Positions 4,609-29,287 of a stretch of DNA of 64,000 nucleotides are shown one piece after another. The DNA lies in sequence record NZ_CP090008.1; one strand, 5' to 3'. Each line of letters starts with the position of its first letter. Positions within the stretch are counted from its first letter, which is position 1. Under the pieces are notes generated by a model, which did no database searches, was not told the DNA's origin, and was given only the letters and a program-made list of their open reading frames with translations. The position numbers were made by a program, and so were the translations under genes. Origin of the DNA: a plasmid.

Positions 4609-5991
4609 ATGGGGTGGACTAGTATTCCGAATTTTGGAGATAAATATGCCAAAGTTAGAGAAAGAACCCATTCATCTGGTGCAAAACTGATAGAAGTTTT
4701 ATACGGTGCTCGTGACAACAGGGGAAGACCCACATCTCCAGAAAGCAATTCTGATGGACACGGTCATTGGCTTGCCATAGAAATAGATGGAATATATCAG
4801 ATGTTATCATGGAGACATCCTATTCATGAAGGTGGTCAGCAAGAATATGGTCGTGGCCGAAGAAGCAATGCCCTCTCTGATTTGGAATCTGACATAATAG
4901 AAAAAGAAAAGATTTGTTCACAGGCTAAGAGTTTATCATTGTCAAATGATTGGAAAACCGCTGCACCTAAATTTAAGCAGTTATTTAATGAATGGAAAAA
5001 GGTTTACAATTGGGGAACGCCAAAAGAAAAACAACTATGGGAAGATTTTCAGGCCGCTAAAAAAACGTTCTATGAACGACGAGAGAGTAATCGTTCAAAA
5101 AATAAAGTTACCAAGCAAAGTATAATTTCGGAAGCTCGAACTTTATCAGCATCAACCGATTGGAAATCCACAGGGCAACAGTTTAAAAAACTTTTTGATA
5201 GATGGAAAGGCATAGGTTCTGCTGGAAAAGATGATGAAATTCTATGGATTGAGTTTAAATCTGCTCAACAAACATTTTATGATCGTCGTTCAAAATACTT
5301 CAGTGATTTAGATAAACAACGTGACAAAAACAGACAAATGAAACAAGCACTGATTTCAGAAGCAAGGAGCGTTTCTCAGTTTTCAACAGATTGGAAACGA
5401 ACTGGCGATAAACTCCATGAATTAATGGATAGGTGGAAAGAGATTGGAAGTGTTGGCAAGGAATATAATGATAGTCTTTGGAATGAATTTAATAGTATTC
5501 GACAGGATTTCTTCAATCGTAGACGTATTTATTATGAGGAACAAGACAGACTTTTCCAAGAAAATGCTAGCCGAAAAGGACAGATTGTACAAGAGGCTGC
5601 AAATATTGCCAGCAGCAGTGACTATTCTGTGCAGACTACAGAGCGCATGAAAGAACTTGATCGTGAATGGAGAAACATAGGCTCCGCTGGAAAGATAAAT
5701 GAGCACCAGCTTTGGAATCTATTTCAAAGTGCTAAAGATAGCTTTTGGTCCGGAAAACGCTTGTATAATGAGCGAAAACAACAGGAATGGCGAAGAAAAT
5801 TGTATGAAGCTATCAATCGTAAGAGAGATCAGATTTCAAATCTTGAACGGCAAATCAGTGAACTTCAATATAAAATGAGTAACATGAGAAATCAAGAGCA
5901 TATCAATAATATGTACCGGTGGATAGATGAAAAAAATTCCAAGATTAGAGAACTTGAAATAGCAATTCAAGACATGGAAAGCAAATTATAG
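4609..5991 (+). CDS. DUF349 repeat protein
   Basis: At least five ~70-aa repeats of DWK..x..F..L...WK.IG..G..E..LW..F..A...F..RR; probable start ATG 4609 (RBS GGAGTG) rather than 4534. Confidence 0.6.
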   Translation: MGWTSIPNFGDKYAKVRERTHSSGAKLIEVLYGARDNRGRPTSPESNSDGHGHWLAIEIDGIYQMLSWRHPIHEGGQQEYGRGRRSNALSDLESDIIEKEKICSQAKSLSLSNDWKTAAPKFKQLFNEWKKVYNWGTPKEKQLWEDFQAAKKTFYERRESNRSKNKVTKQSIISEARTLSASTDWKSTGQQFKKLFDRWKGIGSAGKDDEILWIEFKSAQQTFYDRRSKYFSDLDKQRDKNRQMKQALISEARSVSQFSTDWKRTGDKLHELMDRWKEIGSVGKEYNDSLWNEFNSIRQDFFNRRRIYYEEQDRLFQENASRKGQIVQEAANIASSSDYSVQTTERMKELDREWRNIGSAGKINEHQLWNLFQSAKDSFWSGKRLYNERKQQEWRRKLYEAINRKRDQISNLERQISELQYKMSNMRNQEHINNMYRWIDEKNSKIRELEIAIQDMESKL

Positions 5992-6738
5992 ATTGTGTTT
6001 CCAATATAATTGATGATTACCACGTCCTTGACCTGTTCGCGATTTTAACACATCCAGAATTTTTCATTCAACGAGAAGTTACAAATAGTCACTTTGATGA
6101 CGGTGTTTTAGGTATTTTCGAGTAATTTTTGGAACGTTATCCATTAGCTACGGAATGTTTTAATAAGATTTCTGATTATGTTCAAAAAACTATTAATGAT
6201 ACGATAGGAAAGTTTAGGATTGTTAAAACCCCATGGCATAATATAACTGTATATTGTCGACACGTATTGAGTGTATGAGTTTACTAGAAAAGATGAAACC
6301 GCAAGCTTAAAATAGAATCTGAGATGATCAATCAATTTTTCATCGGAGGCCACGAGGAATGCCAACAAAGAGATATGGTTTCTGAGGAACAATTGAACTT
6401 AGTAGGTTTAGTTCTAGCACTCTTAGTATTAACTGGGTTGTTAAGACAGAACTCTGACTTTATGATTGTTGTCGACTTATGCTTGTCGCAAACTCTTATT
6501 GAGATGTCTCGCAATAAAGCAGAAAAATTATTTGGTAGGCATTAATAGTAGTATAGACACCATTTTAGGATGGTGTTTTTTGTTTAGATTGTTTTTTATA
6601 AAGCAATTTGCTTTCCACTTAATCTGGTTGGCAGCATTTACGAAACCTGGTTGAAAAATATAAAAAAGTGAAATAAAGTGTCCTCTGAGCTTCGCATACA
6701 AGACCTGTTATGATATACTTATATCAAGGTTAAGGAAT

Positions 6739-9254: not shown

Positions 9255-11198
9255 ATGAAGGAGAGGACTAACCATAATCTTAGTAAGACTCCTTATATTG
9301 ACAAATACACAACAGACCTTACTGAGAAAATCAGACCCAAGCGTCAAGATTTTGTGGCTTGGGGTAGACAAGATGAAATCAGACAAGTCTTTATCTCACT
9401 GAATCGATTAGAAAAAAACTCTCCTGTACTAATTGGTGAAGCTGGTGTAGGTAAAACAGCTATTGTAGAAGGAATTTGTGCGGATATTCTTAACAAGAAA
9501 GCCCACGTCCCAACACGTTTCCAAGGTAAGCAGGTTAAGCAACTAGAATTATCTGCTATCCAAGGGAAAGAATTTGACCATACAGGTAAAGAGGTGAACA
9601 TCATTGCCAAAATGGACGGATTGATTAAAGAGTTTATGGCTCACAAAGATGAGTTTATCCTCTTTATTGATGAAGTGCATACCATTATGGGAACAGGTGT
9701 TGAGGGAAGTGCTCTTGACGTCGCTAATAGCTTGAAACCAGCCTTATCTCGTGGGGAAATCTATCTTATTTCAGCCACTACAGCTGATGAGTTTATGATT
9801 ATCGAACGAGACCCAGCGATGGAACGACGTCTGCAACCAGTTTACGTTGATGAACTGGACAAAGAGGCATCTATTTTGGTCTTGAAAAAACGTCGTCCCA
9901 AGTATAAACGAGAACTTGATATTGAGATTCCTACTGATGCCATTAAGGCAGCAGTAGAATTATCTATTCGTTATGTCACGGATAAAATGCTTCCGGATAA
10001 AGCTATTGATATTATTGATGAAGCTTCAGCGACTGCAAATATCGATGGGAAATCAGAGATTACCTTAAAAGATATTGCGAGTGTCATTCACCGTAAAAAA
10101 GGTATTCCTATGGAAAGTCTTCTACGCACGTCCTCAACACCAGTGGATTTTGCAGAAGGTATGCGTGCTGTTGTTAAGGGGCAAGACCATGTGATTCGAA
10201 CTATAGCACGCCTTATGTATAAAGGTATCCAGGGTGGGCAGAACAAGCGAAGACCTCTAGGAACTCTTCTTCTACTTGGAACAACAGGTACAGGTAAAAC
10301 TGAATTGGCGAAACAAGCAGCAAAACAACTGTTTGGTAGTGAAGAAGCGATGATTCGGCTGGATATGTCAGAATACATGACTGATAATGCTGTTGTTCGT
10401 CTTATAGGAAATGACGAGCGAAAAGGTGACTTAACGGAGAAAATTAAGAAGAATCCCTACTCGTTAGTACTATTGGACGAGTTAGAAAAGGCTCATCCAG
10501 ATGTATGGGCTTTATATTTGCAAATGCCTGATGACGGGCATTTGACTGATGGACGTGGACGAAAAATCAATTTTAAGAATACGTTTATCATTGCGACATC
10601 AAACGTGGGGCATAAGCGAATCAGAGATAAATATATCACCTCTGGTCAAACCTTTACAGAAATGAACAAGACTGACTATAAAGAGTTCATGAAGGATATG
10701 AGAGACGAGTTAATCAAAATCTTTAAGCGTCCTGAATTTATCAACCGTTGGAAAATTGAAGTGACTAATATCTTGACGAAACAAACCATTGATAAGATTG
10801 TCTATTCAAAAATGGCAGTACATGAGAGTACTTGGTTTAAAGAGCATCATATCCTTATTAATTATGAGGATGTTAAGGATGGTGACCAAATTATCGATGG
10901 CAAAAAATACTTCTATGAATATCTCAGTAGTGTCGGTGTTAGTCCAGAAGATGGAGCAAGGCCTTTAGAGAGAACTATTGATGAAGTGTTAACTGATGAA
11001 ATCTTTGAGCAATTGTATTTCCTTGGGCGAAAGCCAGAAGATTACTTTATGGTTGATGTGTCTTTATCTGGACATGCACCAGGAACGTTTGCGTATGGGA
11101 ACTCAGGTAGAAAGACAGTTCAAGATAGACGTCAGACACATATTACTGTCAAACGGATACCTCCAGAGGAGTATGGTAACTATTTGCTTACTTCTTAA
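9255..11198 (+). CDS. ClpA/ClpB-family double AAA+ ATPase lacking N-domain
   Basis: D1: RQDEIRQVFISLNRLEKNSPVLIGEAGVGKTAIVEGI (Clp D1 signature); D2: VKGQDHVIRTIARLMYKGIQGGQNKRRPLGTLLLLGTTGTGKTELAKQ...MIRLDMSEYM (Clp D2 signature); 647 aa, too short for N- and full M-domains. Confidence 0.75.
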   Translation: MKERTNHNLSKTPYIDKYTTDLTEKIRPKRQDFVAWGRQDEIRQVFISLNRLEKNSPVLIGEAGVGKTAIVEGICADILNKKAHVPTRFQGKQVKQLELSAIQGKEFDHTGKEVNIIAKMDGLIKEFMAHKDEFILFIDEVHTIMGTGVEGSALDVANSLKPALSRGEIYLISATTADEFMIIERDPAMERRLQPVYVDELDKEASILVLKKRRPKYKRELDIEIPTDAIKAAVELSIRYVTDKMLPDKAIDIIDEASATANIDGKSEITLKDIASVIHRKKGIPMESLLRTSSTPVDFAEGMRAVVKGQDHVIRTIARLMYKGIQGGQNKRRPLGTLLLLGTTGTGKTELAKQAAKQLFGSEEAMIRLDMSEYMTDNAVVRLIGNDERKGDLTEKIKKNPYSLVLLDELEKAHPDVWALYLQMPDDGHLTDGRGRKINFKNTFIIATSNVGHKRIRDKYITSGQTFTEMNKTDYKEFMKDMRDELIKIFKRPEFINRWKIEVTNILTKQTIDKIVYSKMAVHESTWFKEHHILINYEDVKDGDQIIDGKKYFYEYLSSVGVSPEDGARPLERTIDEVLTDEIFEQLYFLGRKPEDYFMVDVSLSGHAPGTFAYGNSGRKTVQDRRQTHITVKRIPPEEYGNYLLTS

Positions 11199-20596: not shown

Positions 20597-22642
20597 TTGA
20601 AACGAATAGGTGATAAAGCTGCTCGTGTTCTTCTAACGATTTTTGGAGTGAAGACAACCATTATTATAGGAACTATTTTAACTTTTGCGGTTATCTTAAT
20701 TGCAATTATCACTGGTTTAATGGGGACGATTAGTACTTCCGGTGGGAAAGGTGGCAAGACTAACGCCCAATGTGTAACCTACCAAAAAGATGGCGATGAA
20801 GAAGACGATGATGGCTCTAAGCCTCAATCGACTTCTACTAAAACAGACTCAGCATCTGCAAGCGATTCTGATCCCTTTACGAAGGGGACAAAAGCCTATG
20901 AAAATGCCCACAAAGTCTTTATGGCCTTAGTGAATGCCGGACTGTCTGGGGAATCTGCTGCAGGTCCTGTTGGTTGGGCAAACTCTGAAGGGGGCTATGA
21001 CATCATTGGACGTGCCCAAGGACATTATGGTGGTGGTATCAATGACTCCATTTCTAAGGGAGCTGTTCCAACGACAGGTGGTACGTCTAACACACTTGGT
21101 GGTGGTGGAATCTTCCAGTTTGACCCCTTCACGAAATATGCACCTTTAAATAGTCCAGACTGGGAAGATGCTGATAAGATGGTTGCCTTTGTTATTGATG
21201 CAATCTCAAAAGGTGACTGGAACCCAGCCTATGACGAATCTGGCCATAACTGGTCATTCCAGGAGTTTGCTAAACAAACCAATATCGATGAAACTGCTAT
21301 GGCATGGAATGCCTACGAACGAGGTAATATGGCTTATGTCAGACCAGAGCAAAAGAAGGCGGATGCAAGGAAGTTTGCGGAAGTCTTCGAAGCAAGTAAA
21401 TATAAGTACGATGATGCCAAGTTCCAAAAGGCGTTTGGTGGTGGTGGAGCTTCTTCCAATAACTCCTCGTCAAGTAGTCAAAGTTCAGATGATGATAACG
21501 GTGACGACGATGAAGAAGATAGCGACAACGAAGACAATGATAACGATAGCAGTTCAAGTAGTTCATCAAGTGACTCTAGCAACAAGGATAGCAAAAAAGA
21601 CAGTGATAAAGACAAGAAGTCTATTGATACTGATAAGGCTATCAAGTGGTATAAGGATAAGCTAGGGAAGGTCAAGTATTCTCGTGATGCTCGTACTGGG
21701 CCAGATAGCTATGACCATTCATCTGCTCTATACTATGCCCTTGTTGACGGTGGTGCTAAAGAATCTGGTTCTCCAGTAGATACCGATTCAGAACACGATT
21801 GGTTGAAAGATAATGGTTATGAGTTAGTGTATGAGGGTGCCTGGTTGTCTAAAGATGATGTTCAAAACCGTGAAAAAGGAGATGTCATTATCTGGGGTAC
21901 GAAAGGTAGTAGCTCTGGAGATAAAGGACAGACCATGCTTGTTGAGGATAAGGAAAATATTATCCAATGTTCCCCATCGACAGACGGGATTGCTGAGAAC
22001 AATTATGGTCAATATCGAGACCGTATTACTATGGACTACGGAAAAGTCTATGTCTATCGTCCAAAAGAGTCAAAAGACAAGAAGGGTAAGGATGATGACA
22101 AGGAAGAAGTAGATGCAGATACGTGTGGTGATAGCGATAGTAGTAATCTCAATACTGATACAGGTCAGCCCCTTGATGTCCCTTATACCATTACCCAACT
22201 TTTCGGTGCATCAGCTAATGCTGGCGGTCCAAATGCAGGTTCAGGGCACACAGGAATGGACCTTGCAGCACCAGAAGGCTCTCCAATTTCTGCCGTAACA
22301 GACGGTGAAGTAGTAGAGGTCAATGAAGAGGCGATGAATATCGATGGTAACCACGTGATGCACACTCTTCCAGATGGCACTATTATATATTATGGACATA
22401 TGCGTGATGTTCCTCTTGTTAAGAAAGGTGATAAGGTCAAAAAAGGACAACTTATCGGGTATGTCGGACAAACGGGTGCAGCTACTGGACCACATATTCA
22501 CTTTGAACGTCGAAAAACGAAAGTCTTCCAGTATGGTGATTTCTTGAGTCCAGCATCAATTATTTTAGGAGATACCCAACCACAAGTTGGAATGGTGATT
22601 GATCCTAAGACACAAAAAGGTGGAGCACCATCTAAAGAATAA
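20597..22642 (+). CDS. membrane-anchored peptidoglycan hydrolase (CHAP/Amidase_5-like domain + Peptidase M23 domain), TTG start
   Basis: N-terminal TM; central KYSRDARTGPDSYDHSSALYYAL (Amidase_5/CHAP-like motif); C-terminal M23 motifs GHTGMDLAAPEG...HMRDV...GPHIHFE; Asp/Ser-rich linkers. Confidence 0.7.
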   Translation: MKRIGDKAARVLLTIFGVKTTIIIGTILTFAVILIAIITGLMGTISTSGGKGGKTNAQCVTYQKDGDEEDDDGSKPQSTSTKTDSASASDSDPFTKGTKAYENAHKVFMALVNAGLSGESAAGPVGWANSEGGYDIIGRAQGHYGGGINDSISKGAVPTTGGTSNTLGGGGIFQFDPFTKYAPLNSPDWEDADKMVAFVIDAISKGDWNPAYDESGHNWSFQEFAKQTNIDETAMAWNAYERGNMAYVRPEQKKADARKFAEVFEASKYKYDDAKFQKAFGGGGASSNNSSSSSQSSDDDNGDDDEEDSDNEDNDNDSSSSSSSSDSSNKDSKKDSDKDKKSIDTDKAIKWYKDKLGKVKYSRDARTGPDSYDHSSALYYALVDGGAKESGSPVDTDSEHDWLKDNGYELVYEGAWLSKDDVQNREKGDVIIWGTKGSSSGDKGQTMLVEDKENIIQCSPSTDGIAENNYGQYRDRITMDYGKVYVYRPKESKDKKGKDDDKEEVDADTCGDSDSSNLNTDTGQPLDVPYTITQLFGASANAGGPNAGSGHTGMDLAAPEGSPISAVTDGEVVEVNEEAMNIDGNHVMHTLPDGTIIYYGHMRDVPLVKKGDKVKKGQLIGYVGQTGAATGPHIHFERRKTKVFQYGDFLSPASIILGDTQPQVGMVIDPKTQKGGAPSKE

Positions 22643-22929: not shown

Positions 22930-23739
22930 TTGATTTCAATAAGGAGGGACTTAGATTTGCCTAATAATAGTTACGAAGATTTTTTATATGATGAGGATCA
23001 ACGGCTCCATAGTGTATATGAAGTTCAAAAAGAATATGAACAGAATAATGGTGATATTTCAAAGTATCGTGATAAAATGTTGTGTCCTGAATGTAAAAGA
23101 GCGAAATTACGTTTTACACATAAAACATCAGAAAGAAGAGCATTTTTATCAACTTTTCCAACCTCAAACCATGAAAAAGGTTGTTCATATAATTATGACC
23201 TAGCTTCAAATAGGGCGGTTAAGCAATTTGTAGCAACATTAACAGATGAACAAGTACATGATAGGCTTGAAGCAATGTTAAATACCTTGTTGCCTAGGTA
23301 TAGAAGAGACAATGAAAATGCAGTAAATGCTGAACAAGAGAATCCATTCGTAATAGATATAGGAGCAAGAAACCATCAGCTTAACCGAAGAGCAATATCA
23401 AGAAAGTCTATGAATCGTTGGTTTGATAAAGCGGATGAAAACAACATATTCCTATTTTATGGTAAGGTAAGGTTATCAGTTGAAGAGACAAAAACCAAGA
23501 AGGGGAAACGGTATAGATTAATTGTGAAGACCAAGAGAGGAGTGGAATGGATCCAAAAGACCAGAATTTTTAGAGGGATGGCTAAAGATGCTATCGATGA
23601 GAATACAACGTATGACCTTGCTGTTATGGGACACCTTGAATTTTATAATATCCTTCCACAAATTGTCACAGAATCATGGACTTCGATTTTGTATAGAGAG
23701 GCAAGGAGAAAAGAAGAAACAATAAAGTATATTCTTTAA
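22930..23739 (+). CDS. hypothetical protein with Cys/His zinc-finger-like motif (CPECK...H...C)
   Basis: 269 aa; LCPECKRAKLRFTHKTSERRAFLSTFPTSNHEKGC; precedes nuclease gene. Confidence 0.5.
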   Translation: MISIRRDLDLPNNSYEDFLYDEDQRLHSVYEVQKEYEQNNGDISKYRDKMLCPECKRAKLRFTHKTSERRAFLSTFPTSNHEKGCSYNYDLASNRAVKQFVATLTDEQVHDRLEAMLNTLLPRYRRDNENAVNAEQENPFVIDIGARNHQLNRRAISRKSMNRWFDKADENNIFLFYGKVRLSVEETKTKKGKRYRLIVKTKRGVEWIQKTRIFRGMAKDAIDENTTYDLAVMGHLEFYNILPQIVTESWTSILYREARRKEETIKYIL

Positions 23740-23861
23740 AAGGTGTACTTTATTTTAGGGGTGAATAATGTATATTTTAGTTCTATATTTATCTGCTTAA
23801 ATCATGTAAAAGCCGTGTTATAATTTAGAAAAGGAAAATTATACTTTTAGGAGGACAACAT

Positions 23862-25667
23862 ATGAGCAGTCGTGACAAATACACAGTAGAGTTAAAACCT
23901 TCAGCATTAGATATTAAACAAACTTACTCTGACTACCCTGAATTGAAGAATTTGCTAGAAAATTCTTCATATGATGATGGAGGTTTCTTCATTCTGAATA
24001 ACAATAAGATGTTTGATGATGATAAACGGCCTAGTATTTGTCAGCATAAAATTATTTTGGACGAAATACAAAATATTGAAATTAAAACAATAAAGGTATT
24101 GTTGTCTAAACGGTTTAATAAAAACAAAGATAATTTTGAAGCTTCCGAGACTCATAAGGATAAAAAAGGGAAGTATTTAGAGTGGACAACTAAACCTGAT
24201 AATGTCTATGGCAAACAACACATAAAAATTGATTGTTCAGTGTTTCCCAGTGAGGATATTTTTAATCGAGGACATCTAATAGCAGATTCAATTATTGATT
24301 ATTGTGACGAATTTGATTACCGTAAACGGGAAGACTTCGTTATGATCACTAATTGGTGTAATCGAGCCAATACTAATCACAAAACTAGAAAAGCTTGTGG
24401 TATGTTCTATTTTGAGAATGTTATACTTAATACATTAGAAAAAGGAATTGATGTTGAATATAGAGTTACGCCAATCTTTAAAAAGAATTCAGAAGGTGCA
24501 AAACAAGAATTTGAATACCTTCCTAGAGGCGTTATTTTAGAAGCTAAAACGCTAAATAAAGAAGCGTTTGAAGTAGAAGATGATTATGTTATCATGAATG
24601 AATTTAATGTCTTTATCCCAAATGCTCAAAATGGTTTAGACATCAATTATAAAACAGGTTCAATAAAAGCCACTTCATCTTTAACTGAAGCAAATGCAAG
24701 CCCTGCAGACCACATTAAAAAATTACCTGAACATATTATAAAGGACGCATTATCAACTATTGCAACATATCCTAAAGTAGCAGAACAAGCTAATCTATCA
24801 AGAATAGCAGCAGCTACAAGCGTGTTGAAAAATAAAGAAATTACACAACTTCTAAAGAAAATAGATAGTGTGATAGAACAATCAGGTTTGAAGCGGTTTT
24901 CAGAACAGAATAAGGAACTTTTCAAAAGTCTAAATAAAACGTCACAAATCATTAGCACGTTAGGCCAAAGTATTGCCACAGACTACCTCGTAGAATTAAG
25001 AAGACAGTTTTCAAATTTATCTGAGGTAGTAAAAGATGCTCTTACTCCATACACGGAAGAAGAGAGAAAGAGTATAATCGATAAAGTAGAAATTTTTGCT
25101 GATAAAGGCTGGGTTATCTTCTTCCAAAACAGAGCAGTCGTTAATCAGCTTTTGTTAGACGATACTGAAGACATTGAGGTGGAGTGGTTAGATAATCTTA
25201 AAGAGATTATTTCAGATACATCTAACATAGAGTATTTAGCGAGATCACAGTGTTTTTCTTATCATCTAATCCAGTCAATGGCAATGAGTTATTCAGAACA
25301 AAACTACTACGCAGCCTACACGCTTGCTTCATTAGCTATTGATGGTGCACTTAATAGATTAGCAGAGCCATTATCTAGTGAGGTGGATAAAGTGACAGCA
25401 GTTGGACACAAAGCGATAAGAAAAATTGATGAGCAAATAAGTCCTGGAGAAAAAACAGTTTTTGACTACGGCCTTTTGCATTGGTGTTATAACTTTTTTG
25501 CCGATACCCAACGATTTACTATTAATTATCCAAACAGACACATGATTGGACACGGACGTTGGGATGACGAGATTTCAGAAGAAGAGTTTTTAAAACTATT
25601 TAATGTGTTACTTTATCTTGAGGAGAATTTTGATTATTGGGCAGGAATTATTGATGAAAATTGTTAA
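23862..25667 (+). CDS. cytoplasmic protein with DNA/RNA non-specific (beta-beta-alpha-Me) endonuclease-like domain + 380-aa unknown C-terminal region
   Basis: FNRGHLIADS (DRGH-type catalytic motif) followed by ENVILNTLEKGIDVEYRVTPIF resembling the Serratia-nuclease ...RKLIDRADISSVYTVTGPLY segment; no signal peptide. Confidence 0.5.
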   Translation: MSSRDKYTVELKPSALDIKQTYSDYPELKNLLENSSYDDGGFFILNNNKMFDDDKRPSICQHKIILDEIQNIEIKTIKVLLSKRFNKNKDNFEASETHKDKKGKYLEWTTKPDNVYGKQHIKIDCSVFPSEDIFNRGHLIADSIIDYCDEFDYRKREDFVMITNWCNRANTNHKTRKACGMFYFENVILNTLEKGIDVEYRVTPIFKKNSEGAKQEFEYLPRGVILEAKTLNKEAFEVEDDYVIMNEFNVFIPNAQNGLDINYKTGSIKATSSLTEANASPADHIKKLPEHIIKDALSTIATYPKVAEQANLSRIAAATSVLKNKEITQLLKKIDSVIEQSGLKRFSEQNKELFKSLNKTSQIISTLGQSIATDYLVELRRQFSNLSEVVKDALTPYTEEERKSIIDKVEIFADKGWVIFFQNRAVVNQLLLDDTEDIEVEWLDNLKEIISDTSNIEYLARSQCFSYHLIQSMAMSYSEQNYYAAYTLASLAIDGALNRLAEPLSSEVDKVTAVGHKAIRKIDEQISPGEKTVFDYGLLHWCYNFFADTQRFTINYPNRHMIGHGRWDDEISEEEFLKLFNVLLYLEENFDYWAGIIDENC

Positions 25668-25796
25668 CTTTTAGCAAATACCATTTTGAAGAGCTGACCT
25701 CAGTTTAACGAGACTGTAAAAGCACTACACATGATTTAATGCTAAGTAAATAGAAGCCATTATAAGAAAGGTTACATATGACTACAGAACAACACA

Positions 25797-26063
25797 ATGG
25801 GGAATGGTCAAGATTGGGTGCGAACAGCGGCAAGCCTCGGTGGAGAAACAGGGTCAACCCCAAAAGCAGGTGCTATTATCTCTTTTGTGGGTGGTGGTCA
25901 TGGCTCAGATGTAGGATGCGAACATGTGAGTTTTGTCGAAAAAGTTTATCCAGATGGGTCATTCCTTATTTCAGAAACGAATGTCAATGACAATCCCAAT
26001 TACACTTTCCGTAAATTATCAGGACCAGATAGTACCATGAGTTTTGCCTATACGAGGAAATAA
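25797..26063 (+). pseudogene. 3' fragment of a CHAP-domain gene
   Basis: GAIISFVGGGHGSDVGCEHVSFVEKVYPDGSFLISETNVNDNPNYTFRKL is a CHAP C-terminal half (His region) with no N-terminal Cys part; last 130 bp duplicated at 27098-27228. Confidence 0.6.
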
Positions 26064-26099
26064 TTTGAGCTAGTTTTTATATCTCAATTGACGTAAAAG

Positions 26100-26128
26100 T
26101 TGACAAAGTCAAGGAAAGTTTATATAAT
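26100..26128 (+). promoter_or_regulatory. consensus sigma-A promoter TTGACA-N17-TATAAT
   Basis: ttgaca aagtcaaggaaagttta tataat. Confidence 0.7.
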
Positions 26129-26134
26129 GAATAT

Positions 26135-26332
26135 GTAAATAAGAGATTACTAACTTGTGGGCTAGTGGATATGGTCTGCACCCGCCTGTGGGCTCCGCAA
26201 GCAGCGTAGACTGTTTGTTGAGAAAAAGAATAGCAGGACTGCCTACCCTTGAGGAATAGATAGGGCATATCTAGCGTGAGGTGAAACTCAATACGTGGAA
26301 GAGAAGGAAGCACGTGCTTCCTTCTCTTTTTT
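26135..26332 (+). ncRNA. candidate ~200-nt structured RNA / cis-regulatory leader of gene 26347
   Basis: Consensus promoter; GC-rich (relative to surroundings) body with repeated CYTGTGGGCT; ends in perfect terminator GGAAGAGAAGGAAGCACGTGCTTCCTTCTCTTTTTT whose 3' side overlaps the RBS of the next gene. Confidence 0.4.
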
Positions 26333-26346
26333 AGGAGAAAATTCAA

Positions 26347-26982
26347 ATGACATATACTTTGGAATGGCTAAAGACATTTGATGGTGAGATTGATATTTTA
26401 AACATTGAGATGTCTTGTTTAGCCAATACGATTGAGAAATATGTTTCTCAGTACAAGTACGTTTATCAGACAAATATGGAGGCCTATCCAGAAATAATTC
26501 TTTCTGTCCCAAATTCCTCTATCCCACATTTATTAGGGCTATCGAGGGAACATCATGTCAATTTACCGACAAATAACGCTGGAAGCATTTTTGAAGGCTT
26601 GAAAGATGACTGGACATTGGAACGTCTCAATGGAGCGGACAATGGTTGGTTTAATGAAAATAAATTTAAAATAGTTGGAACCCTATTGCTCTATCAAATG
26701 TTACATGGAATAGAATGTAAATTCTATACGACGGAAGGTATTTTGAATAGACAGTCAGGAAAACGTTTTAGAAGAGATAATATTTACTTTGTAGTTTTTA
26801 AATTGAGTAATGGAATTCATTATACGGTTGAATTATCACATGAGCGAGGAAATCAATATTTCCCACGAAGTCTAAAAATTAATGATTCATCTATTACAAA
26901 TTGTAGAGAGATTGAACTAACACTGATTGATAAGAAACGTATTAAGAGCTCTAAAGTCCGAAAAGTTAGTTGGTTCTCTTAG
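26347..26982 (+). CDS. hypothetical protein (211 aa)
   Basis: RBS AGGAG embedded in terminator tail; no domain recognised. Confidence 0.55.
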   Translation: MTYTLEWLKTFDGEIDILNIEMSCLANTIEKYVSQYKYVYQTNMEAYPEIILSVPNSSIPHLLGLSREHHVNLPTNNAGSIFEGLKDDWTLERLNGADNGWFNENKFKIVGTLLLYQMLHGIECKFYTTEGILNRQSGKRFRRDNIYFVVFKLSNGIHYTVELSHERGNQYFPRSLKINDSSITNCREIELTLIDKKRIKSSKVRKVSWFS

Positions 26983-27097
26983 AGGAAAAATATGATTGTA
27001 AGATACTGTGCTTACGATACACTATGACAGTCATCCACTAATTGGTGGGTAGCTTTTTCTTTGTCCTTCTTTGATGTGATACCAAGATTAAGCTGTC

Positions 27098-27228
27098 TTT
27101 GTGGAAAAAGTTTATTCAGATGGGTCATTCCTTATTTCAGAAACGAATGTCAATGGCAATCCCAACTATACTTTTAGTAAGCTATCAGGACCAGACAGTA
27201 TCATGAGTTTTGCCTATACGATAAAATA
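27098..27228 (+). repeat. second copy (~90% identical) of CHAP 3' end 25935-26063
   Basis: gt(c/g)gaaaaagtttat(c/t)cagatgggtcattccttatttcagaaacgaatgtcaatg...tttgcctatacg. Confidence 0.7.
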
Positions 27229-27311
27229 AAAAGAATAAGCTAACAAAATGTATCATTGTTAACTTATTCTTTTTATTATTCCTTTACATGGTAGAAGATG
27301 TTGAATGAGCG

Positions 27312-27707
27312 TTAGCATTTGTTTGAAAAGTCTAAGGTACTTACTAAACTAATAATTTCATCAAGGATTTCTGAGAAGGAGATACCTGTTGTATAATTAT
27401 ATTTCTTTGAATAATTTTCCCATTGTTGCTGCTGAGTAATGTCAGACTTGAATGTTCTTAGAAGTTGGATGATGTTGTTAAAATTGAGTTCAGTTTCACG
27501 ATAGGAGAAGGTTCTTTCACAAGCTATCTTTAATTGTTCAAAATCAATGTCATCTTTCTTTAACTTGGAGAGGATATAGACACCGTAAAAATCCTTGTTG
27601 CGACTATTCAAGAAAATTCTTGAGTAAATGGTTTGTAATTTTTCAGCTAAAGATGAAAATACGCTTCCTAAAGTTGTAGAAGGGATGAAGAGGTAGAGGG
27701 AACTCAT
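27312..27707 (-). CDS. hypothetical protein, last gene of GntR-ABC operon
   Basis: 4-nt overlap with upstream permease gene. Confidence 0.45.
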   Translation of the reverse strand: MSSLYLFIPSTTLGSVFSSLAEKLQTIYSRIFLNSRNKDFYGVYILSKLKKDDIDFEQLKIACERTFSYRETELNFNNIIQLLRTFKSDITQQQQWENYSKKYNYTTGISFSEILDEIISLVSTLDFSNKC

Positions 27708-28174
27708 TTTTTTAGGAGCTGCCCAAAGTTGCTCGTAATCAGTAGGAAATCTTTTAAGTCTACGTTAAATGCGGCTATAATAGCAATCGAAGTCAGTACT
27801 ACGAGACTAGAAATCGTATTTAAAATAAAGGCTACAAAAAGTTTCGATAAGATTATTTGGTGGGCAGAACCTGGGAGTGTATTGGTTAGATAACCTTCTC
27901 TCCCAAAGACAGTCTTTGCAAAGCGTCTAATAATAAGGACTATTGTCGCTATATAAATGGCTCCCCATACAATAATAGTGGCAAAACACATCAGTGTGAA
28001 GAAAGCAAAAAAGAGTAGACTAGGTTCTTCGTTACTGTGTTCAAAGGTGAACATTAATTTGTGAAGCATTAAGCCCAAGGGAATAGAGAGTAGGATGGCA
28101 ATACCATAGATGCCAAAATACCACTTGCGGACTGATTGTAATTCAGACTTAACTAAATTCCAAAACATGCTCAT
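27704..28174 (-). CDS. ABC transporter permease-like membrane protein
   Basis: 4 TM helices; follows ABC ATPase. Confidence 0.5.
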   Translation of the reverse strand: MSMFWNLVKSELQSVRKWYFGIYGIAILLSIPLGLMLHKLMFTFEHSNEEPSLLFFAFFTLMCFATIIVWGAIYIATIVLIIRRFAKTVFGREGYLTNTLPGSAHQIILSKLFVAFILNTISSLVVLTSIAIIAAFNVDLKDFLLITSNFGQLLKK

Positions 28175-28275: not shown

Positions 28276-28878
28276 TTATAAGAAGACAACTTCATCTAGG
28301 ACAGATTCAATATCTGCAATCAAATGAGTTGAAATAATAACAGAAGCATCTTCAGAGTATTGGTTGATGATAGTTTTAAGGATATAGTCACGTGATGCAG
28401 GATCGACCCCGCCAATAGGTTCATCAAGGAGATAGAGTTTAGCCTCACGACTCATAACCAAAATCAACTGAACTTTTTCTTTGTTACCTTTTGAAAGGTC
28501 TTTAAGGCGCAAATCAGGCTGGAGCTTTAGATCCTCCAAGAGATGTAAGGCAAGAGGATAGCGGAAGTCAGCGTAAAAATCTTGGAAGAAATCCAAGTAG
28601 TACTGGATTGTCTTACTTTCATCTAAATAGGTTGTGTCAGGCAAATAAGCCACTTGCGCCTTAGTGATAGGTGATGGCTGAAATCCATTAATGGTCACTA
28701 AGCCAGAAGTCGGTTGAAGGAGACCGTTCAAAATTTTGATTAGAGTTGTTTTCCCACTACCGTTTGGACCTAAAAGGCCAACAATTTTTCCTGACGGGAT
28801 GGACATGGTCACATCTCTAAGGGCTGGAACACCATTATAAGTTTTGGTGAGATTTGTTAAAGTTACAATATCAGTCAT
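28276..28878 (-). CDS. ABC transporter ATP-binding protein
   Basis: Walker A GPNGSGKTT, signature/Walker B LLDEP; start taken at MTDIVTL (28878). Confidence 0.75.
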   Translation of the reverse strand: MTDIVTLTNLTKTYNGVPALRDVTMSIPSGKIVGLLGPNGSGKTTLIKILNGLLQPTSGLVTINGFQPSPITKAQVAYLPDTTYLDESKTIQYYLDFFQDFYADFRYPLALHLLEDLKLQPDLRLKDLSKGNKEKVQLILVMSREAKLYLLDEPIGGVDPASRDYILKTIINQYSEDASVIISTHLIADIESVLDEVVFL

Positions 28879-28882
28879 CAGT

Positions 28883-29287
28883 CTATAACTCCTTTCCTGT
28901 TTGTTCAATGTAGTCGGTGATAATGGTTTTAATTTTAGGTGAACTAAAGCCAATAGTCATCATTTCAGTGACAAAGTTTTTTATAAGGTTTTGAGCAATT
29001 TCGTGTCGTTTTTGATCAATGAGTTTCTCATCTTCAGTAACGAAGCGACCAGACGTACGAGCAGAATAGACCAAACCCTCTTTTTCAAGTTCTTGGAAGG
29101 CTCTTTGCACAGTGTTTGGATTGACACCGGCTTCCTGAGCGAGTTCCCGAACGGGTAAGAGTTGTTGCCCTATGCTTAATTCTTTGGAAGCAATTTTAAG
29201 TTTGACACGATAGGCGATTTGAAGATAAATGGGTGATTTTTCATCAAATGTCCAAGCCATAAGAGACTCCTTTCTAGGAAATATCAT
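28883..29287 (-). CDS. GntR-family transcriptional regulator (YtrA-like)
   Basis: HTH: LPVRELAQEAGVNPNTVQRAFQELEKEGLV. Confidence 0.75.
   Translation of the reverse strand: MIFPRKESLMAWTFDEKSPIYLQIAYRVKLKIASKELSIGQQLLPVRELAQEAGVNPNTVQRAFQELEKEGLVYSARTSGRFVTEDEKLIDQKRHEIAQNLIKNFVTEMMTIGFSSPKIKTIITDYIEQTGKEL

Follow-up and report, generated by a model that had tools for sequence, protein, structure and literature searches.

We found that positions 26090-27097 of the window (the whole 64-kb stretch of DNA that we analysed) form a self-contained unit of RNA plus protein, a two-gene module of ~1 kb whose carriers are conjugative elements and plasmids of lactic-acid bacteria. The segment from its promoter to its terminator is a genuine structured RNA, and the ORF behind that RNA encodes a predicted RNase of 211 aa. 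The two are most likely an RNA antitoxin and a protein toxin in a new type of pairing. We put the chances at about even that the module acts in the manner of type III toxin-antitoxin or abortive-infection systems, for which we infer the RNase activity, the toxicity, the RNA-protein binding and the trigger.

The module begins on the plus strand with its left edge and a sigma-70 promoter (26090-26128). As a preliminary description of this DNA had claimed, TTGACA (-35, 26100-26105) and TATAAT (-10, 26123-26128) are separated by 17 nt and match the consensus at 12 of 12 positions; this is the sole perfect site in the region, and RNA transcription probably starts at ~26135. Both boxes keep their positions in all loci, and the sequence farther upstream is unrelated between contexts. 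The GC-enriched transcript of ~200 nt that had been described is also there: it is a structured, non-coding RNA of ~198 nt with its terminator (26135-26332, plus strand), with a G+C content of 51% and a conserved, covarying fold. It ends in an intrinsic terminator followed by a U-tract (26299-26332, plus strand; inverted repeat I13, 100% complementary), with arms of 15 nt each (26299-26313 and 26314-26328) and a T-run that ends at 26332. The terminator is strong and, as first described, perfectly paired, with a stem of 15 bp as a palindrome (effectively ~13 bp and a 4-nt loop) and not 14 bp; the ribosome binding site, which had been placed inside the 3' arm, lies just 3' of the U-tract. Hairpin and T-run stand at the same place in 28 of 28 aligned loci, and their sequence is lineage-specific.

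The Shine-Dalgarno (SD) sequence AGGAG (26333-26337) and the 211-aa ORF (26347-26982, start codon ATG at 26347) occupy 26333-26982 on the plus strand, and the ORF is intact, in agreement with the initial claim. Since the SD sequence starts 1 nt past the T-run, no space is left for a separate promoter of the ORF. The order promoter, RNA, terminator, SD sequence and ORF is common to all 28 diverse loci, in which the gap from T-run to SD sequence is 0-26 nt (mostly 0-14 nt). The 3' flank of the module (26983-27097, plus strand) holds a second terminator-like hairpin at 27033-27050.

The RNA folds into five helices and a loop-to-junction pseudoknot, all on the plus strand. Our covariance model of it, R1, matches the core at 26154-26301 with 152 bits (E 7e-38), its sole match in the window. 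In the alignment, the P1 hairpin pairs 26156-26164 with 26172-26180 around a 7-nt loop (GUGGAUA, 26165-26171); eight pairs are 98% paired and five are changed on both sides. P1 has many G-U pairs; hence, the fold exists on the plus strand alone. A first hand pairing of P1 (GUGGG with CCCGC) was dropped, as all types support a register of 8-9 bp. P2 is a long-range helix (26185-26189, CCUGU, with 26233-26237, GCAGG) that encloses P3; it is 98.7% paired, with all five pairs changed on both sides (CUCAG/CUGAG, CCUAC/GUAGG, UCUGU/GCAGA). P3 (26193-26204 with 26211-26222) varies from 4 to ~12 bp with the lineage, and its closing pairs covary. P4 (26246-26249, CCCU, with 26262-26265, AGGG) carries the conserved 12-nt loop UGAGGAAUAGAU and is 99% paired, with three of four pairs changed on both sides; in a group of RNAs without a protein gene (S1), C-G is replaced by A-U. 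P5 (26274-26280 with 26287-26296) has an internal loop and the loop GUGAAA, and covaries in types B and C; a near-invariant stretch of 36 nt around it shows 0-2 substitutions in 35 loci (L001-L004 and 31 genome loci), with an exact copy in the window. The pseudoknot joins the P1 loop (26167-26171, GGAUA) to the P4-P5 junction (26268-26272, UAUCU) and takes the form GGAUAU/AUAUCU in type A, ACUAAC/GUUAGU in type B and GCUGAC/GUCAGC in one locus (L054). It is 87-100% paired and two of its pairs are changed on both sides, even though the model was not fitted to it.

Over the whole alignment, 94.9% of cells are paired, compared with 81% after shuffling and 29-43% with the partners slid. Both sides are changed in 23 of 35 pairs, the observed score was reached by 0 of 500 shuffles, and the result holds in a sample selected through the RNA as well. 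Conservation and covariation in homologous loci, the absence of which had been named beforehand as speaking against the RNA, were thus both found. The minimum-free-energy fold of the single sequence (z -2.7) recovers P1, P3 and the terminator and misses P2, P4 and the pseudoknot.

This RNA is a previously uncatalogued class, with no match to any family in Rfam 15, RAGATH and other Lactobacillales motifs included. A cmscan of 25600-27400 with E up to 10 gave noise only (the best hit had 24.7 bits, where the gathering score is 84), and a gathering-threshold scan of seven loci returned nothing at the position of the RNA, the abiF family (RF03085) included. Its sequence string did not occur in the literature that we searched. 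No tandem repeats were detected by TRF at a minimum score of 30 on 26090-26350, and no families of direct repeats lie wholly inside the RNA. By inspection, there was no convincing resemblance to a tRNA or to the anticodon loops that are substrates of colicins D and E5, and complementarity for an antisense or SD-masking role of the RNA or of a terminator arm was trivial.

We found the RNA upstream of every intact ORF homologue examined (Streptococcus, Lactococcus, Lactobacillus, Granulicatella, Gemella and metagenomes), so the question raised earlier, whether homologues are always preceded by a similar RNA, has a positive answer for this set. The 13 PLSDB plasmids with the protein are the same 13 that have the RNA. 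In the 31 genome loci and in every divergent homologue fetched (38-58% identity) there is exactly one R1 match, just upstream and on the same strand, and the 534 kb of those loci hold no further match. Divergence of RNA and protein is correlated (Spearman 0.95; Mantel 0 of 999), with the RNA the better conserved of the two: in Lactococcus plasmids whose protein gene is missed by blastn, the RNA still has 81-90% identity. In loci that lack the RNA, the ORF has decayed through stops and frameshifts, one of them in the IPHLLGLS motif (L039 and L040), or has lost its 5' end to a deletion (L035). The dependence of protein on RNA is one-way, with no intact protein gene without the RNA. Assembly errors may account for some of the frameshifts seen in metagenome contigs.

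The RNA does occur by itself. Sixty loci found through a 22-mer of the RNA comprise 37 with an intact ORF, 12 with a broken one and 11 with none; in these 11 orphans the RNA is full-length (118-146 bits) and has a promoter and a terminator of its own. Ten of them have no co-oriented ORF of at least 80 aa close downstream, and the other (L113) has an ssb-like ORF. One orphan group lies between rnj and a CBS/DRTGG gene in the chromosome of Enterococcus cecorum. In group S1, the RNA is followed by a convergent gene of opposite direction, the RNA core is 91% identical compared with 69% for promoter and leader, and P1 has compensatory changes. The orphan RNAs are functional genes under selection.

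The 211-aa protein itself matched nothing in Pfam, PADLOC, NCBIfam, PHROGs or a PDB sequence search, and a PDB search with the family profile also returned nothing. PF18813 (PBECR4, Pfam) matches 15 of 22 aligned relatives (39-87% identical to the window protein; best E 3e-9) and does not match the window protein at E <=0.1; database sources name the relatives 'PBECR4 domain-containing protein'. The PBECR4 family is predicted to consist of colicin-D-like RNases, with a proposed active site made of a His in an N-terminal helix together with a C-terminal Ser/Thr (Iyer et al. 2017, PMC5512222). We found H61, H69, H70, R143, D144, E162, S175, N179, D180 and R198 invariant; P60-H61 is so even in the distant tier, and S175 is invariant in A2, within the motif S175-L-K-I-N-D. 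In an AlphaFold2 model (pLDDT 93), H61 lies in a helix (58-62) and S175 in a strand (170-178), and these two are the putative active-site residues. The 211-aa protein is thus predicted to be an RNase of a rare PBECR4 clade, which numbers 61 clusters among 1.84 billion representatives. Viral contigs gave one match to the protein and none to the RNA 22-mer or in the distant tier; this is not a phage module.

The layout is the one by which type III loci are defined, with promoter, RNA, terminator and a toxin ORF reached by read-through (reviewed in PMC5086642). The type III systems ToxIN, AbiQ/antiQ, CptIN and TenpIN likewise have one promoter, an RNA, a Rho-independent terminator and a read-through ORF; they also share a pseudoknot in the RNA, a toxin that is an endoribonuclease (predicted from sequence for our protein) and a home on plasmids and mobile elements, Lactococcus plasmids included. 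Their RNAs, however, are arrays of 34-50-nt tandem repeats, whereas here there is a single multi-helix fold of ~150 nt; the toxin need not process the RNA here, and there is no sign that it does, orphan RNA genes exist, and the 211-aa protein has no match to ToxN/AbiQ, with which CptN and TenpN share an endoRNase fold. The earlier remark that the geometry is like type III, with no tandem repeats evident, is borne out on both counts.

Among antitoxins that are RNA motifs unlike ToxI, the closest functional precedent is AbiF-RCd22 of Clostridioides difficile, in which a structured RNA with its own SigA promoter and terminator lies directly upstream of a toxic protein gene; RCd22 lowers the toxin dose by termination and, by binding the protein directly, neutralises it in cis and in trans (PMC12373285). 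Both systems place a structured RNA and a terminator directly upstream of the protein gene. RCd22 has two repeated hairpin motifs, whereas the present RNA has no repeats, and its protein is Abi_2/HEPN-like, whereas ours is of the PBECR4 type; the Rfam abiF family does not match here. PBECR domains of the polyvalent proteins of phages and conjugative elements have been proposed to be injected effectors that act on host or CRISPR RNAs, with no RNA partner described, and solo versions were noted on elements with T4SS-like transfer systems (PMC5512222). Through the 15 of 22 relatives that match PF18813, our protein is placed in the family of these domains, and their proposed His and Ser/Thr are matched by H61 and S175, but it is a solo protein of ~211 aa, behind a terminator and obligately coupled to a structured RNA. 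We found no paper that ties a PBECR protein to an RNA in a literature search outside the large catalogues of unnamed microbiome RNA candidates (e.g. PMC8040213). A further parallel comes from colicins D and E5, BECR-fold tRNases that have protein immunity factors: a BECR-type RNase toxin is held inactive by an inhibitor that is tightly linked and co-expressed, as we propose here.

In the mechanism that we propose, one strong constitutive promoter would yield an abundant RNA of ~200 nt, with five helices and a pseudoknot, that ends at the strong terminator, and transcripts that read through the terminator would alone be the message for the PBECR4-type RNase. Since only read-through transcripts would encode the protein, the RNA would always be in large excess over it. 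The RNA would bind and neutralise its cognate RNase; when the supply of RNA drops, by loss of the element or by transcription shut-off during phage infection, the longer-lived RNase would be freed and would cut cellular RNA. Chromosomal orphan copies of the RNA could then be immunity against such RNases. The one-way dependence and the order promoter, RNA, terminator and ORF make the module fit a type III-like toxin-antitoxin or abortive-infection system, and an independent small RNA or antitoxin, one of the options listed at the outset, is the reading that we favour. Neutralisation of a toxic protein by the RNA has indirect support from this dependence, from the orphan RNAs and from the correlated divergence.

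Several observations count against this reading. The RNA is non-repetitive and much more intricate than the RNA antitoxins known so far, a hint of a further or different role. Loss of the sole promoter would equally account for ORF decay in loci that lack the RNA, and broken ORFs and orphan RNAs are also expected if the function of the RNA is unrelated to the protein.

The RNA could instead be a non-coding RNA that has its own function (as a regulatory small RNA, an RNA scaffold, or even a ligand-binding or catalytic RNA), with PBECR4 as its dedicated partner, for example a processing or maturation RNase or an RNP subunit, and not a restrained toxin. Stand-alone RNA genes kept under selection in chromosomes without the protein, an ornate fold with long invariant junctions and loops beyond the needs of protein sequestration, the joint divergence of RNA and protein, and a protein that is never intact without the RNA, as expected of an RNA-dependent protein, all agree with this. 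We nevertheless regard it as possible but doubtful: the protein gene lies behind a strong terminator without its own promoter, which minimises its dose relative to the RNA; the gene is broken with the RNA intact in 12 of the 60 loci; the module travels with Abi, toxin-antitoxin and restriction cargo on ICEs and plasmids; and BECR-fold proteins in conflict systems are typically toxins. In a more speculative reading, improbable in our judgement, the RNA may do more than inhibit: it could represent a new class of functional RNA with a complex fold, a sensor or gate (whether for a phage product, for a small molecule or for the state of cellular RNA) that controls release of the BECR RNase. The orphans in E. 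cecorum and S1 could then be domesticated immunity RNAs, or an ancestral cellular RNA that was captured by mobile elements.

A riboswitch or attenuator for the 211-aa gene had also been suggested. As such a cis-acting leader, which in the case of an attenuator might respond to a protein or a tRNA, the RNA would control transcription of the gene through the terminator, and it does lie in the 5' leader of the gene, with the terminator directly before the SD sequence and a conserved complex fold typical of riboswitch aptamers. However, the RNA stands without a PBECR4 gene, with its own promoter and terminator, in 11 of 60 RNA-selected loci; the terminator arms vary freely and are wholly different between lineages while the core is invariant; no conserved antiterminator pairing was seen by inspection in the aligned loci; and the RNA is tied to one protein family and never to a metabolic regulon. 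The one-way dependence and the stand-alone RNA genes argue against a riboswitch or leader, and we consider this reading very unlikely.

The module is flanked by remnants of a CHAP-domain gene. The left one (25797-26063, plus strand), an 88-aa ORF, is the C-terminal part only (Pfam CHAP positions 24-81 of 81) and corresponds in alignment to residues 844-933 in the hydrolase (933 aa) of a related element (L005). The right one (27098-27229, plus strand) is a second copy of the 3' end, the last 43 codons and the stop (residues 890-933 of the same hydrolase), followed by a hairpin terminator (27225-27277, inverted repeat I1). The repeat of ~130 bp and ~90% identity that had been reported is real: 25932-26063 and 27098-27229 are 90% identical over 132 nt, from codon ~45 of the 88-aa fragment to exactly the stop codon (26063 and 27229), with unrelated flanks, and this similarity is far beyond chance. 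Alignment to other module copies (L006, L007, L009, L013 and L039) breaks between TCTTT and GTGG at ~27097. Hence, the insert boundary is real.

These repeats had suggested that the 1-kb segment is a site-specifically integrating cassette, with the repeats as attL and attR that regenerate the CHAP 3' end. They do abut the insert at both ends, copy 2 begins exactly where homology to other module copies stops, and L005 provides a second case, a 270-bp duplication of a CHAP 3' end around a 336-aa ORF. We abandoned the suggestion, which we now hold to be extremely improbable. There is no recombinase within 26064-27097. Both CHAP copies are fragments, so the gene is not regenerated; its 5' part is absent from the window, and the hydrolase of the window ICE is a different, CHAP-less protein. 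Junctions are unlike among the window, L005, L007-L012, L035 and L039: the left breakpoints of the remnants vary by up to ~20 nt, left spacers differ, the right-side remnants measure 132, 72 and 270 bp, and in L039/L040 the 72-bp remnant follows a module flank that is ~80 nt longer. In L007, L009 and L012 the module follows an intact CHAP 3' end, after a different spacer of ~95 nt, and no second copy is there. The module also occurs without CHAP repeats at unrelated sites on plasmids and other elements and at other ICE sites. At the window junction, microhomology is just 4-5 nt (CTTT/TTTT), as expected for illegitimate or homology-facilitated recombination. The 132-nt repeats are seams that recombination left in a hotspot for cargo, downstream of the peptidoglycan-hydrolase gene of this ICE family, and they play no part in the mechanism of the module.

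Abi, toxin-antitoxin or restriction cargo neighbours the module copies on ICEs and plasmids. In the window, the right neighbour is a C-terminal fragment of AbiEii (27312-27707, minus strand; Pfam AbiEii positions 140-237 of 238; PADLOC AbiEii 2.5e-53), which belongs to the same mosaic cargo region and lies outside the module. The order CHAP, terminator and AbiE is also present in L005 and L039.

An uncatalogued class of structured RNA, with a core of ~150 nt and near-invariant junctions and seen in at least five genera, is added to the short list of toxin-partner RNAs, and its strong covariation makes it a ready target for structure determination. Solo PBECR4 predicted RNases gain a first concrete partner and a testable function. 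If the RNA is an antitoxin, control of the type III-like kind extends beyond repeat arrays and ToxN-like toxins, and the orphan chromosomal copies would exemplify RNA-based immunity against toxins of mobile elements. If the sensor or gate reading, or that of the orphans, is true, this would be the first RNA-protein conflict system that combines a BECR-fold RNase with a single-copy RNA of riboswitch size. The ICEs and plasmids that carry the module belong to streptococci, to lactococci, which serve as dairy starters, and to lactobacilli, and there plasmid stability and phage resistance are of practical importance. A weak match in a Paenibacillus plasmid suggests that the module may reach beyond Lactobacillales.

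The module lies between two copies of a CHAP-gene 3' end, and all the features listed in the preliminary description (repeats, promoter, G+C-enriched segment, terminator, Shine-Dalgarno sequence and ORF) were found in the window. Between the repeat copies, we found the promoter TTGACA-17-TATAAT (26100-26128, + strand), which matches the consensus at 12 of 12 positions, an RNA segment of 51% G+C, and, on the + strand, a terminator whose two 15-nt arms (26299-26313 and 26314-26328) pair without a mismatch and precede a T-run. The Shine-Dalgarno sequence AGGAG is immediately 3' of the T-run (+) and ahead of the intact 211-aa ORF (26347-26982, +) obtained by ORF search; hence, the ribosome-binding site is 3' of the U-tract rather than inside the terminator stem, where it had been placed. 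The -35 and -10 boxes, the RNA, and the hairpin with its T-run are kept in all 28 aligned loci, among which the hairpin sequence is lineage-specific and the distance from T-run to Shine-Dalgarno sequence is 0-26 nt (0-14 nt in most).

Searches of Pfam, PADLOC, NCBIfam, PHROGs and PDB sequences with the 211-aa ORF of the window gave no match. A sequence search found 83 homologues and a profile search 99, with hosts in Streptococcus, Lactococcus, Lactiplantibacillus, Leuconostoc, Apilactobacillus and Enterococcus. For several of them, a PF18813 hit is precomputed or the database name is 'PBECR4 domain-containing protein', and individual scans gave a PBECR4 match in 15 of 22 aligned relatives (best E 3e-9). 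Iyer et al. (PMC5512222), who defined PBECR domains, described them in polyvalent proteins from phages and conjugative elements; solo versions also occur, on elements that have T4SS-like transfer systems (PMC5512222). The invariant residues here are P60-H61, H69, H70, R143, D144, E162, S175, N179, D180 and R198, and the PH pair is retained even in the distant tier of relatives. From the Pfam profile and the conserved residues, rather than from fold evidence, the 211-aa protein is a predicted RNase. Its clade is rare (61 clusters at E <=1e-3 among 1.84 billion representatives), and almost all members are solo proteins of ~200 aa.

The structure of the RNA, derived by hand from homologous sequences, has five helices: P1, of 9 bp, closes a 7-nt loop, P2 is long-range, P3 varies in length, P4 carries a conserved 12-nt loop, and the loop of P5 is GUGAAA; most pairs hold already on a plain MAFFT alignment. 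A pseudoknot joins the P1 loop to the P4/P5 junction, with the pairing GGAUAU/AUAUCU in type A (the form present in the window), ACUAAC/GUUAGU in type B (GUCGGCCU...AGGUUGAC in P1) and GCUGAC/GUCAGC in comparison locus L054; in type C, the P1 loop has an extra hairpin inserted. In the alignment from the search with covariance model R1 (144 positions, 30 bp), to which the pseudoknot was added, 94.9% of cells are paired (81% after shuffling, 29-43% when the partner is slid), both sides change in 23 of 35 pairs, and the covariation score is 0.467 vs 0.215 for shuffles, with the observed value reached by 0 of 500, all within the limit that R1 fits the nested helices and not the pseudoknot. Hence, the structured RNA is conserved and covaries in homologous loci. 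Since many pairs are G-U, the fold is specific to the + strand. No family for this RNA was found in Rfam 15.

RNA and protein are linked across loci. With blastn against plasmids, unannotated DNA in 11 Lactococcus plasmids matched the 3' half of the promoter-to-terminator segment at 81-90% identity, and it is within ~10-40 nt of the protein match in all 11; in the two inspected (L001 and L002), this DNA is directly upstream of a ~212-aa hypothetical protein. The protein in the Lactococcus plasmids is only ~48% identical to that of the window. The plasmids carrying the protein and those carrying the RNA are the same 13. Of the 36 genome loci retrieved with the protein, 31 have a 36-nt RNA core with 0-2 substitutions, and divergent homologues (38-58% identity) have much-changed yet recognisably homologous RNAs, sorted into the three types A, B and C. 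Each intact-ORF locus has exactly one R1 match (E 1e-21 to 1e-40), in every case immediately ahead of the ORF and in its orientation, and nothing beyond these was found in 534 kb, the rest of the window included; the idea that homologues of the 211-aa protein are always preceded by a similar RNA thus held. RNA and protein distances are closely correlated (Spearman 0.95; Mantel 0/999), and the RNA is the slower-evolving partner. In Paenibacillus crassostreae plasmid pPC02 (L132, 2200-2460), a distant PBECR4 gene, 23% identical to P0149, a distant relative of the window's protein, and probably annotated with too early a start codon, is preceded by promoter-like TTGAAT-17-TATACT, a hairpin with a T-rich tail, a Shine-Dalgarno sequence and a weak R1 match (12.6 bits, E 0.009, filters off). 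From this locus, the RNA-PBECR4 association may extend to Bacillales.

A metagenome scan with an RNA 22-mer gave 73 loci picked without reference to the protein, and all 73 have the full-length RNA (118-155 bits). In the 60 with enough downstream sequence, the protein gene is intact in 37, frameshifted or stop-containing in 12 and absent from 11. The protein-less loci are not debris. Four (L062, L082, L083 and L125) are from the Enterococcus cecorum chromosome, with the RNA between rnj and a CBS/DRTGG gene and a plausible promoter, TCGACA-17-TATGAT. Six others, plus L107 (too little downstream sequence to classify), form group S1 (L072, L076, L087, L104, L107, L118 and L120), in which the RNA has a consensus promoter and its own terminator and adjoins a convergent TlpA-like lipoprotein gene, read in the opposite direction. 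Identity within S1 is 91% in the RNA core vs 69% in promoter plus leader, and P1 has compensatory changes. These stand-alone copies, in E. cecorum and S1, are under selection. In the RNA-less loci L039 and L040, the ORF has several stops and frameshifts, one within the IPHLLGLS motif, and in RNA-less L035 its first 41 codons are gone. Group II intron fragments are near the orphan RNA of L076. In metagenome contig BNJU01004320.1 (L065, 9932-10500), an orphan RNA (10246-10370) is ~200 nt downstream of a RAGATH-18 RNA (Rfam RF03064, 64 bits), and a promoter-like ~25-mer, TTTATGATAAACTATATTTAGTCGA, is repeated before and after it, which points to a mobile element carrying small-RNA genes in an array.

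We put at about an even chance that the RNA of the module is an antitoxin and its PBECR4 RNase the toxin, with toxicity, RNase activity and binding all putative. We reasoned so since an intact protein gene always comes with the RNA, the RNA also occurs as orphan copies, breaks in the protein gene are frequent, and the surroundings include Abi, TA and restriction cargo: AbiEii (window and L004), PemK/MazF (L003), an Abi gene (L001), and Mrr and HNH genes (L044 and L058). Type III TA loci have this layout, and so does AbiF-RCd22, a pair characterised by experiment, whose structured RNA binds the toxin in cis and in trans as well as limiting read-through. However, two defining features of type III, repeat arrays (no tandem repeats were found in the RNA) and a ToxN-fold toxin, are missing, so we describe the module as type III-like in its working rather than as belonging to type III. 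The main rival reading, in which the RNA functions in its own right and the protein is partner rather than captive, draws on the ornate fold and the orphan copies under selection, and we consider it rather unlikely. A riboswitch or attenuator for the 211-aa gene, suggested earlier, is unlikely, as the stand-alone RNA genes and the terminator sequence drifting freely beside an invariant core argue against it. A literature search, whose coverage stopped short of unnamed candidates in large microbiome RNA catalogues, found no paper linking a PBECR protein to an RNA; the RNA class and the putative toxin family are new here, and type III-like RNA-protein control is already known. The 10-kb plasmid of Lactobacillus sp. 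CBA3605 (L003) has together a Bacillus-plasmid RNA (6127-6187; Rfam RF01691, 70 bits), the RNA-PBECR4 module and a PemK/MazF pair.

The direct repeat is 132 nt (25932-26063 vs 27098-27229, 90% identity), and its copies extend exactly to both stop codons, with unrelated flanks. When the module is compared with its counterparts at other loci, homology begins ~10 nt upstream of the -35 box and stops in the window at ~27097, where the second repeat copy starts, confirming an insert boundary. A related element encodes a 933-aa hydrolase of which both repeat copies are remnants, the first matching residues 844-933 and the second 890-933; the hydrolase of the window ICE itself (20597-22642) has Phage_lysozyme2, Amidase_5 and M23 domains and no CHAP domain. 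The junctions vary: in L007, L009 and L012 a CHAP 3' end precedes the module across a different spacer of ~95 nt and a second copy is lacking, in L039 and L040 a 72-bp CHAP remnant is joined to a longer module flank, and in L005 an unrelated 336-aa ORF is flanked by a 270-bp CHAP duplication. The left breakpoints of the remnants are up to ~20 nt apart, microhomology at the window junction is limited to 4-5 nt, and the window module has no recombinase. These results speak against the proposed site-specific cassette regenerating the CHAP 3' end, and we rejected the repeats as att sites; they are best read as seams left where related ICEs recombined repeatedly, by an illegitimate or homology-facilitated route, at a cargo hotspot downstream of the hydrolase gene. 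Independent remnants (window 25791-25800, L005 ~5985-6001 and L035 ~5640) start within ~20 nt of one point, just before ATGGGnAATGGnCAAGATTGGGT, and leave an in-frame ATG (MGNGQDW...); recombination may favour this point, or selection may keep a C-terminal fragment that can be expressed.

Downstream of a 336- or 307-aa ORF, L005 (5850-5990) and L039 (5870-5970) have a second small RNA candidate, with a TTGACG-17-TAT(C/T)AT promoter, a GC-rich hairpin region of ~60 nt (GGGGCGTGCTA.TCACGTCTGGGAGG.TCTGATGCGTCAGTCCTCC) and a T-run; it takes the place of the PBECR4-associated RNA ahead of the decayed ORF in L039 and L040. In the window, the stretch from the ICE peptidoglycan-hydrolase gene to the first CHAP remnant has a two-gene cargo (22930-25667). 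One gene encodes a protein of 269 aa, which has a weak zinc-ribbon match; the product of the other, 601 aa long, has a DNA/RNA non-specific endonuclease domain at its N terminus, and its C-terminal part matches phrog_15273 (E 2e-67). PADLOC gave no match to this cargo, which is possibly another defence module. On the other side, an AbiEii toxin reduced to its C-terminal ~130 aa (27312-27707, - strand; PADLOC 2.5e-53) abuts a 156-aa membrane-protein ORF (27704-28174, -) of a GntR/ABC-transporter operon (28276-29287), and this junction is another seam of the mosaic.
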